Both the position numbers and the translations under genes were made by a program. From Escherichia phage HMD-6, in the sequence record PQ505080.1: DNA of 64,000 nt; one strand, given 5' to 3'. The notes under the pieces were generated by a model, which saw nothing but the letters and a program-made list of their open reading frames with translations, ran no database searches and had not been told where the DNA came from. Positions 62,110 through 64,000 of the stretch are shown here, one piece after another; position 1 is the stretch's first letter, and every line of letters begins with the position of its first letter.

Positions 62110-62393
62110 GAGCCACCGTATTGTTAGTTGCTTGCTTACTGCTGTGCGGATGTGCGACAAGTGTCGAAAAAGAATATAAGATTGACCCTCCGGATGTAGG
62201 AAGGTTGATTGTTAAACCTCCCGAGGGTGCTATGAAACCACCTGCTAAAGCTATCCCTTTGAAGAAAGGTGCGCCAGATGCGGTGAATTCTGGCATTATG
62301 AGGGATAATAACCTGTCTTGTAGTAATGATAGAGCTAAATTGATCATTTTGCAAGACTATATAAGAACACTGTTTCCAAAGGAGAGAGGTTAA
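62106..62393 (+). CDS. putative o-spanin (Rz1-like outer-membrane lipoprotein)
   Basis: Signal peptide with LLLCGC lipobox-like sequence, Pro-rich; paired with 61711-62109. Confidence 0.55.
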   Translation: MRATVLLVACLLLCGCATSVEKEYKIDPPDVGRLIVKPPEGAMKPPAKAIPLKKGAPDAVNSGIMRDNNLSCSNDRAKLIILQDYIRTLFPKERG

Positions 62394-62818
62394 TGTCTAA
62401 GATTTACGGACCGTGTTCTGAAAAGCAGAAGATGATCCTTGAGAACGATGCAGATATTTTGGTGATTGGAGGTGCAGCCGGTTCTGGCAAGTCGTTCCTC
62501 TTGCAGCTAATGCCACTTAAAATTATTGATGACCCACACAGCTCTGTGGTTATGTTCCGAAGAACAACTCCACAGTTGGAAGGTGAGGGTGGGCTATGGC
62601 CTAAAGCAGTAGCTATTTACAGTGATCTGCCTGAAAACATTAAACCAAAGTTCAGAGAGAAGGATCATAAGTTTATTTTTCCACGGTTTGATCCGAGCAC
62701 TGGCAAGTGGGACAGGAGCAAAAAAGGGGCCGTTGTAAAATACTGCCACATGGAGTATGTCCAAGATAAGCTTAACCATCAAGGTCTTGAGTACACCATG
62801 GTTTGCTTCGATGAGGGT
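62393..62818 (+). CDS. terL: terminase large subunit, exon 1 (ATPase N-terminal part)
   Basis: Walker A GGAAGSGKSF, Walker B VCFDEG; frame closed by TAA that is the first 3 nt of the intron. Confidence 0.75.
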
Positions 62819-63136
62819 TAATTTGTAGCTCTCGTAAAACCTCCCTAATTGCGGGGAAATCTTTATTATCGGCACCACCAACCTGTTATGGTAACATGAT
62901 AGGGGCTTCGAAGAGAGATCGAAGGTATGGTAACAGTGTGCTGATTTAGATAATCCGCAGCGAAGCATCCGAGAGGATGAACGTTCAACGACTAGTCGAA
63001 AGACGTAGAATCAAGCGATTCGAAACGGGAGGGTAAGCGGTCGTTATCGCTTATAAGATATAGTCTGGTCTGCATGGAGACATGCAGCTGCCTGAAATGG
63101 CGGGGCAAGACTAGCGACCTTGCCCGAACATAAACG
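62819..63136 (+). mobile_element. group I self-splicing intron (ORF-less, T4 td-like) in terminase gene
   Basis: 5' junction GGT|TAATTTG like td GGGU|UAAUUG; AAGATATAGTCTGGTCTGCATGG P7 region near-identical to nrdD intron; 3' end GAACATAAACG. Confidence 0.7.
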
Positions 63137-64000
63137 ACACAATTCGAATGGGAGCAGATAGACTATTTGATGTCTCGTCTGCGATCTCAGTCAAAGTATC
63201 CATCAAGAATGGTTATCAGTTGTAACCCCGACTCAGAACACATGCTTGCCAAACTGGTTAGGTGGTGGTTGGACGATGAAGGGTATCCAGATCCGGAGAA
63301 ATGTGGTAAGAAAAGATATTTTATCCGACGCGACGGTGAGTTTATCTGGGGAGACTCTAAAGAGGAGTTAATAGAGAAATACACCACGGTTAACGGACTG
63401 GGTGTGGAGATCAAGCCAAGACCGTTGTCATTCTCGTTTATAGGCGCAACAATTTTCGATAATCCTGTCTGCTTGAGAGACAACCCAGAGTACCTTGCTT
63501 TCCTTGAAGGTCTACCAGAGCTTGAAAAAGCCCAGCTTCTTCATGGCAACTGGTTTGCCAAACCTGAGGGTGCAAACTATTTCCAAAGATCTTTCCTTCG
63601 TGATGCCGATAGAGTACCTCTTGGATCAGTATCTTGCAGGGCATGGGATAAGGCAGGAACCGAGAGAACTTCCGGTAATAAATTTCCTGACTTTACTGCC
63701 AGTGTTAAGGTAAGTAAAGATAGCGACGGTTTTTATTACCTGTCCGGGGATTATTGTCCTGAGAACGTGGATGACGGTAGGTATTCCACAGGTCTGGAAG
63801 GTAAGTTCTGTAAAAAGGCTGGGGAACGAGATGTGATCATCAGGAAACAGGCGCAGTTTGATGGAGATGATTGCATAATCGTATTTTCTGTGGACCCCGG
63901 TCAGGCAGGTAAGAGTGAGTTCTTAACCTCGTCCAGATCCTTGCTCGCCGAAGGGTTCAGGGTTGAAGAAGATCCGATGCCTTCCAACAAATCTAAACTG
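63137..64000 (+). CDS. terL: terminase large subunit, exon 2 (partial, runs past window end)
   Basis: In-frame continuation TQFEW...RMVISCNP (coupling motif), LLHGNW, nuclease-domain-like region; no stop before 64000. Confidence 0.75.

Follow-up and report, generated by a model that had tools for sequence, protein, structure and literature searches.

The TerL Gene of Phage HMD-6 Is Interrupted by a 318-nt Insert

The window analyzed here, a 64,000-nucleotide (nt) stretch of DNA from Escherichia phage HMD-6 (PQ505080.1), an rV5-like phage of the genus Vequintavirus, ends within the gene for the terminase large subunit (TerL), and the element under study is an insert that interrupts this gene. 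TerL is encoded on the plus strand, downstream of a tRNA cluster and an i-/o-spanin pair, and its ATG at 62393 overlaps the stop codon of the o-spanin gene. Its open reading frame (ORF) closes with TAA at 62819-62821, directly after ...EYTMVCFDEG, which contains the Walker B motif VCFDEG; the frame is open again past a further TAA at 63131-63133, and coding resumes in frame at 63137. Exon 1 (62393..62818, plus strand) comprises 142 codons, harbors Walker A (GGAAGSGKS) and Walker B (VCFDE), and ends ...DEG. Exon 2 (63137..64000, plus strand) comprises 288 codons and is cut by the window end, with ~86 codons missing compared with the 516-amino acid (aa) intron-less orthologue. Excision of 62819-63136, whose 318 nt are a multiple of three, restores a continuous TerL that reads ...VCFDEG/TQFEWEQIDYLMSRLRSQSKYPSRMVISCNP... 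(here and below, the slash marks the insertion point), with the insert separating the Gly142 codon from the Thr143 codon, just past Walker B. The predicted spliced RNA would carry the junction ...GAGGGT-ACACAA... (exon letters TTCGATGAGGGT-ACACAATTCGAA), and the predicted peptide across it reads ...VCFDEGTQFEWEQ... and ...EYTMVCFDEGTQFEWEQIDYLMSR. Pfam Terminase_6N matches the spliced TerL in one stretch, residues 25-294, running across the junction (73.3 bits versus a cut-off of 22); no Pfam C-terminal domain was reported in this product, which the window end truncates ~86 codons before the stop.

Comparison with related phages locates the junctions to the base. The 1608-base terminase stretch matched 126 phage records, nearly all of them rV5-like Escherichia phages (Vequintavirus) at 94-97% identity. 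When the spliced exons were used as the query, many close relatives matched in one uninterrupted piece, including EPFV3-03/2025 (99.3%), ECP2303, EmilHeitz, Murica, and CM1. The intron-less TerL of EPFV3-03/2025 (516 aa) matches the spliced window product at 430/430 residues, and the alignment runs ungapped through the junction. Because an intron-less allele with an identical protein exists, both splice junctions are fixed and no one-base slide is possible. Position −1 is T in 10/10 intron-containing alleles and C in 7/7 intron-less alleles. More broadly, the intron-bearing exons meet as GGT and ACA (GGT in 10/10, ACA in 9/10), compared with GGC ACG in 7/7 intron-less alleles. The intron-less TerL of Escherichia phage V18 (L037, KY683736) is annotated as two ORFs and has 9 rather than 10 bases between the junction anchors, along with other small indels; these look like frameshifting sequence errors, not the remnant of an intron.

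The Insert Is an ORF-Less Group I Intron

The insert (62819..63136, plus strand), whose first three bases are the in-frame TAA, belongs to the group I intron family. Rfam RF00028 (Intron_gpI) matched 62809-63087 with 81.4 bits (E=3.8e-19; gathering threshold 50 bits), covering model positions 1-253 from end to end. No plus-strand ORF of at least 30 aa is present within the 318 nt, and all frames contain stops. An earlier reading of this DNA, made from sequence alone (the sequence-only reading), had placed the TAA closure immediately after Walker B and the in-frame resumption 318 nt farther on, had called the insert ORF-less, and had proposed a group I intron to be checked by a covariance-model search; the coordinates and the length prove exact, the intron indeed lacks an ORF, and the search, now run, gave the score above.

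Folding of the intron without constraints gave a minimum free energy (MFE) of −122 kcal/mol (z=−6.2; 0/100 shuffles were equally stable), and the MFE structure recovered P1, P3, P4/P5, P6a, P7.2, P8, P9, P9.1, and P9.2. All elements lie on the plus strand. P1 (62813..62833) pairs the exon bases GAGGGT and the intron bases TA (62813-62820) with the internal guide sequence TAGCTCTC (62826-62833). As RNA, GAGGGU/UA faces the guide UAGCUCUC, and T62818, the final base of exon 1, is the partner in the U62818·G62828 wobble (U-1·G10) at the 5′ splice site, which is preserved in 10/10 alleles. Since T at −1 occurs only with the intron, the U needed for this wobble is strictly linked to intron presence. 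The P3 5′ strand CCTCCC (62840..62845) pairs with GGGAGG (63027-63032) in six invariant pairs. P4, P5, and a P5 extension of ~90 nt, delimited by the MFE structure and pair counts, occupy 62850..62959; P4 joins 62850-62855 with 62954-62959, and the extension (62859-62952) folds into three sub-helices with a GUAA tetraloop. The P6/P6a hairpin, closed by a GAGA loop, follows at 62960..62984.

The P7 5′ strand GACTA (62990..62994) pairs with TAGTC (63061-63065) in five invariant pairs, forming a pseudoknot with P3; P7 is the guanosine-binding helix of group I introns. Two further hairpins (62995..63021), P7.1 (62995-63004, GAAA loop) and P7.2 (63008-63021), are perfectly paired in 10/10 alleles, and in the two alleles in which the P7.1 loop has changed from GAAA to GAGA, the GNRA form is kept. 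Helices P7.1/P7.2, located between P7 and the P3 3′ strand, mark subgroup IA in the classification of Michel and Westhof, as in the IA2-type T4 td, nrdB, and nrdD introns. P8 (63034..63053) is a plain 20-nt hairpin, TAAGCG-GTCGTTAT-CGCTTA. It is followed by J8/7 and the P7 3′ strand, AAGATATAGTC, and the P9 hairpin CTGCATG-GAGA-CATGCAG (63054..63087), a stretch that the nrdD and td introns have too; the J8/7-P7 segment matches the consensus AAGAUAUAGUC. The 3′ end (63090..63136) contains P9.1 (63090-63101), P9.2 (63103-63125), and the tail GAACATAAACG with the terminal G63136. Thus, P3-P8, the P3/P7 pseudoknot, the P4-P6 domain, and J8/7 are all present, and the helices are complementary in all alleles. 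P3, P4, P6, and P7 are invariant, and the backing for these helices is complementarity and the covariance-model score, not covariation.

The Ribozyme Structure Is Maintained Across Ten Alleles

The structure was compared across ten aligned intron alleles, namely those of the window, naam, rV5, LL12, and RudolfGeigy together with five endonuclease-bearing alleles from which the P8 loop had been trimmed. Standard pairs fill 98.6% of the 960 pair cells, compared with 33-40% when the 3′ partners were slid by 1-3 columns. Compensatory changes on both strands were found at seven pairs (P5 extension, four; P8, three) and at none in the six slid controls. The core helices never vary among the ten alleles, and loop changes stay within the GNRA form. 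The intact ribozyme core and the compensatory changes point to selection acting on the RNA structure.

The window allele has its own substitutions in the P5 extension. Two P5a pairs are private to it, C52-G125 in place of U-A and G54-C123 in place of A-U (intron numbering; window 62870-62943, intron nt 52-125), and G85 restores a C64-G85 pair where most other alleles have a C·A mismatch. The lineage that donated this allele is absent from the ten compared. These unique substitutions, and the lack of an endonuclease, might be taken to mean that the genome is defective, with an intron that has decayed and lost function or is an assembly artefact. However, the unique substitutions are pairwise compensatory, and the window core is identical to that of the isolated viable phages rV5, LL12, and naam, making decay or artefact the faintest of prospects.

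We conclude, with a probability of roughly 0.93, that 62819-63136 is a T4 td-like, ORF-less group I intron of subgroup IA, of the self-splicing type, located in TerL just after Walker B. Judged from its sequence, it should be capable of catalysis and of homing. Several points weigh against this conclusion. A P2 helix is absent, being deleted in the Rfam alignment of the window intron. The candidate P10, TGT 62824-62826 with the exon-2 ACA (ACA:UGU), is only 3 base pairs (bp) long and has one pair broken in LL12, and P10 was left out of the evidence for the intron. The ten alleles are a small and closely related sample (mean column identity 97%), and the structure used to compare them was derived from the window sequence, which favors the window in the slid control. 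The searchable literature yielded no experimental splicing data on the window intron or on any TerL intron from a Vequintavirus. In addition, no homing endonuclease is encoded in the window allele, and its mobility would have to rely on recombination or on an enzyme acting in trans.

Predicted Splicing Restores a One-Piece Terminase

The splicing steps that we propose follow the established group I pathway. The TerL pre-mRNA would fold into the P1-P9.2 core, and an external guanosine bound in P7 would attack after U62818, held in P1 by its U·G pair with the guide sequence. The 3′-OH of exon 1, once freed, would attack after the terminal G63136, and ligation of the exons would yield the normal one-piece TerL. 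Ribosomes on unspliced RNA would be stopped by the TAA at the start of the intron.

An alternative is that no splicing takes place and that TerL is split, the 142-aa exon 1 product (the N-terminal part of the ATPase) assembling with a second polypeptide translated from an ATG at 63170. Many GenBank records do list two separate "terminase large subunit" coding sequences (CDSs), the ATG at 63170 is in frame with GGGAG 15 nt upstream, and a nonsplicing precedent is known in the mobE-split NrdA of Aeromonas phage Aeh1 (cited in PMC7344957). However, this ATG and GGGAG are ordinary coding sequence, present in intron-less alleles too, and their spacing is poor. No plus-strand promoter-like site was found in or just after the intron, where matches are at chance level. 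Such a split would also leave Walker B and the later ATPase-domain motifs on separate polypeptides. Moreover, the ribozyme is complete and scores highly, its core is invariant, its helices carry compensatory changes, and T at −1 is strictly linked to the presence of the insert. A two-polypeptide terminase is therefore very unlikely, and the evidence favors an intron that would be removed from the RNA.

The Intron Is Polymorphic and Bears a Gene-Conversion Footprint

Its occurrence was counted in ~119 Vequintavirus-like records, using exon-intron and P8 probes and the total of spliced-exon matches. The intron at this site (intron 1) is present in 52 of the ~119 records; 22 have the ORF-less P8 of the window type and in ~30 P8 is replaced by an endonuclease-bearing stem. 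The TerL gene of the remaining ~67 records is intron-less. An 80-nt intron-less junction probe was rejected as a direct counter, because the alignment joins pieces up to 540 nt apart and ORF-less intron alleles therefore score full coverage. A search of IMG/VR with the spliced protein returned few close relatives (L009, L012, L013, and L016 were useful), too few for statistics. Intron 1 is thus polymorphic, present or absent at one exact site among close relatives.

Absence from ~67 relatives shows that the intron is dispensable. This bears on the idea that it is retained because it regulates terminase, perhaps by tying TerL synthesis to the late phase of infection or to the state of translation. 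T4 td splicing depends on translation and ribosome state, which is the sole general point in favor of such a role; the sequence adds nothing specific. In contrast, the intron-less relatives encode the same TerL uninterrupted, and all four combinations of presence and absence of intron 1 and of the second TerL intron described below occur. We thus consider a regulatory role improbable, and the suggestion in the sequence-only reading that splicing couples terminase production to late infection was speculation that finds no support here.

In the endonuclease-bearing alleles, the P8 hairpin is swapped for TGAATGTG...CACATTCA, a fully complementary stem with a 568-nt loop, which encodes a 194-aa homing-endonuclease-type protein of the Endonuclease_7 family (PF02945). 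In five such loci (L003, L006, L007, L012, and L013; compare window 63034-63060), the Endonuclease_7-type ORF begins in the P8 5′ strand, and its last codons and stop (AAG ATA TAG) lie inside the J8/7-P7 core, such that coding overlaps the ribozyme core. The window intron is the passenger form of this mobile intron. We propose that the intron is a mobile, dispensable parasite, polymorphic in the Vequintavirus population, that may pass between co-infecting phages by gene conversion at the single TerL site, with homing probably helped in many relatives by the Endonuclease-VII-type enzyme encoded in P8.

The exons carry the mark of such an exchange. The window exons differ from those of intron-less EPFV3 at 8/1290 positions, all of them third-codon positions, compared with 2.6-5.3% differences from every other intron-bearing allele. 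Three of the eight differences, at 62815, 62818, and 63139, lie within 4 nt of the insertion point. The flanking markers travel with the intron, T at −1 in 10/10 and A at +3 in 9/10 alleles, a co-conversion pattern. On this sequence comparison, the footprint is the kind that gene conversion leaves when the co-conversion tract is very short, and it would reflect either gain here or loss in EPFV3.

A bolder proposal joins these observations. The ORF-less intron may have been recently acquired by an EPFV3-like genome (or may mark a recent exchange) with a tract of ~4 to 34 nt, and may persist because an occupied site makes TerL immune to the Endonuclease-VII-type enzyme of co-infecting relatives. 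We hold this combined scenario to be doubtful, one chance among several. If true, the ORF-less intron would be a cost-free "immunity allele" in endonuclease-mediated phage competition.

TerL Contains a Second, Empty Intron Site

Exon 2 contains a homing site for a second TerL intron, empty in the window, at 63454..63455 (plus strand), within the sequence encoding GATI/FDNP. In rV5 the site contains a 979-bp intron that includes an HNH gene, and in RudolfGeigy a 268-bp intron that lacks an ORF and scores 95.6 bits with Rfam; it is occupied in HdK5 and in the IMG/VR relatives L016 and L031 as well. An intron lies at the equivalent residue in Vibrio phage R16F and in L033, which is 41% identical. 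The GATI/FDNP site is a recurrent intron target. More distant relatives contain group I introns elsewhere in TerL, near residues 30, 131, 175, 250, and 279. The TerL gene of Vibrio phage vB_VpaM_R16F (L040) harbors at least four group I introns scoring 72-94 bits each. The L033 locus contains three group I matches, one at the intron-2 site and one farther downstream in or near TerL, and L010 and L031 have insertions at the Walker A region. The ATPase motifs of terminase appear to be favored targets of intron insertion.

Comparison with Previously Described Introns

The TerL intron is already known: it has been published, and the records of rV5, LL12, and the BASEL phages annotate it. The rV5 GenBank record (DQ832317) joins TerL from three pieces (ORF64ABC), and in Kropinski et al. 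2013 one section is titled "Introns in terminase" and D. Shub is thanked for having defined the intron (PMC3606486). The LL12 announcement describes a TerL disrupted by a predicted intron (PMC6658697) and the LL12 record states "intron-containing gene," while the records of the BASEL phages give joined TerL CDSs (PMC8594841). Intron 1 of rV5, shared with LL12, naam, and RudolfGeigy, is in the same gene and at the same point (DEG/TQF) as the window intron, is likewise ORF-less (318/319 nt), is ~96% identical, and has identical core helices. Unlike the window, rV5 has the second intron with its HNH gene at ATI/FDNP, and the window allele differs from rV5-type intron 1 in its two private P5a compensatory pairs, a P9.1 loop 1 nt shorter, and EPFV3-type exons. 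The endonuclease-bearing form (ECP26, HeinrichReichert, HdK5) occupies the same site with the same ribozyme outside P8, which in these phages is the other compensated stem with its 568-nt, Endonuclease_7-encoding loop rather than the plain hairpin of the window.

Beyond this gene, the T4-type td intron resembles the TerL intron at both ends. Its 5′ junction, TTGGGT/TAATTGAGG, shares GGGT/TAATT with the TerL intron, P7.1/P7.2 are present, and the 3′ 79 nt are 82% identical, spanning J8/7, P7, P9, P9.1/9.2, and the tail GAACATAA-G. In contrast, the td intron is in another host gene and its 5′ two-thirds is not alignable by BLAST. The td intron also has a P2 hairpin, and T4 td carries I-TevI in P6.

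Pectobacterium phage CB7 (Certrevirus) has a group I intron in the orthologous TerL gene, also at Walker B, with a 3′ domain 67.6% identical over 136 columns, and this intron splices in vivo, as established by reverse transcription PCR and cDNA sequencing (PMC7344957). The CB7 intron, however, carries an HNH gene and is inserted 6 nt (two codons) upstream, at VD/EG compared with DEG/TQ in the window. The 6-nt offset and ~68% 3′-domain similarity rule out the same insertion, and CB7 thus serves as an analogue, not as a direct test. The first TerL group I intron to be reported came from a siphovirus that is unrelated and infects a Gram-positive host; it is a precedent for this kind of element only (PMC3606486).

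The nrdD Intron Shares a Conserved Core with the TerL Intron

The window contains a second group I intron, of 762 nt (34909..35670, minus strand), that splits nrdD (anaerobic ribonucleotide reductase) at SMG/CRSFL and carries an HNH_3-like ORF of 169 aa (35568-35059, minus strand). It scored 32.9 bits in a permissive Rfam scan and was missed at the gathering threshold, at which the TerL intron is the only match in the window; the low score arises because the ORF interrupts the model. The rV5 paper makes no mention of an nrdD intron (PMC3606486).

The sequence-only reading had described an internal motif and the 5′ junction as near-identical between the two introns and the td family, and had taken their relatedness as a sign of recent intron spread. 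The 23-nt motif AAGATATAGTCTGGTCTGCATGG does recur, at 63055 (plus strand) and at 34969-34991 (minus strand, one mismatch), with 0 occurrences expected by chance. The junctions share only GGT, with GAGGGT/TAATTTGTAG (GGT/TAATTTG) in TerL and CATGGGT/AAACTATAAC (GGT/AAACTAT) in nrdD, and the likeness of the TerL junction is to td, as noted above. BLAST aligned the TerL and nrdD introns over a single 37-nt stretch at 91.9%. The close kinship proposed for the two introns is borne out in this conserved core alone; the architecture, the junctions, and the remainder of the sequence do not support it. In gapped alignment, the 3′ ends are 76.5% identical (81 columns) and the 5′ ends 66% (70 columns), and the middle third could not be aligned. 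The TerL intron lacks P2 and an ORF and has the ~90-nt P5 extension, whereas the nrdD intron has a short 5′ part, no long P5 extension, and the HNH ORF. In addition to the broad class and the J8/7-P7-P9 core, the two have similar 3′ tails, GAACATAAACG in TerL and GAACATAATG in nrdD. As read from these alignments, what the TerL and nrdD introns share appears to be only the universally conserved J8/7-P7-P9 core.

If the nrdD intron had recently been duplicated or transposed into TerL in this phage, that could account for the shared motif, the 37-nt stretch, and the similar tails. However, such a copy should show high identity along the whole ribozyme, and identity beyond the core is 66-76% with gaps. 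The 5′ junctions, the peripheral helices, and the type and location of the endonuclease all differ, and the 3′ part of the TerL intron is nearer to that of T4-like td introns (82%) than to that of the nrdD intron. Both introns also recur almost unchanged in the same gene of other Vequintaviruses, with identities of 96-97% (TerL) and 99.87% (nrdD, phage SYGMH1), which indicates spread between phages at cognate sites, not between genes. A recent nrdD-derived copy is thus highly improbable, and recent spread between the two genes is not supported. Overall, the observation in the sequence-only reading is partly confirmed and its interpretation partly supported: the feature is real and correctly placed and the central interpretation holds, but the evolutionary and regulatory additions are not supported, and the reading was unaware of the published descriptions.

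Neighboring Features and Database Records

The tRNA cluster upstream of the spanin genes lies at 60477-61286. Two long but weak tRNA-like matches were obtained in it, one at 60757-60843 to the tRNA-Sec model (41.5 bits, under the model cut-off) and one at 60946-61042 (97 nt, 35.5 bits), where naam has a "tRNA-OTHER" at an apparently corresponding position. The labelling of TerL in relatives is inconsistent. In naam (L001), ECP26 (L003), and HdK5 (L007) the exons are given as separate "terminase" or "hypothetical" genes, the naam o-spanin is labelled "putative large terminase subunit," and ECP26 TerL exon 1 is labelled "putative recombinase endonuclease." Finally, ~18 GenBank records (MG0656xx) bear the name "Campylobacter phage ..." and give C. 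jejuni as the host. Their TerL region is 95-100% identical to that of E. coli rV5-like phages, and they are probably mislabelled as to host or contaminants.

Implications

The intron is an ordinary example of a mobile element that was already known, and it adds little that is new for biology. Its immediate use is in annotation, as the correct TerL join is 62393..62818, 63137.., and many relatives in GenBank list the exons separately or mislabel exon 1. The TerL intron family includes alleles with no intron, with an ORF-less intron, and with an endonuclease-bearing intron, has two independent sites in one gene, and shows a very short conversion tract. It provides a tidy natural data set on homing, one that illustrates known principles rather than new ones.

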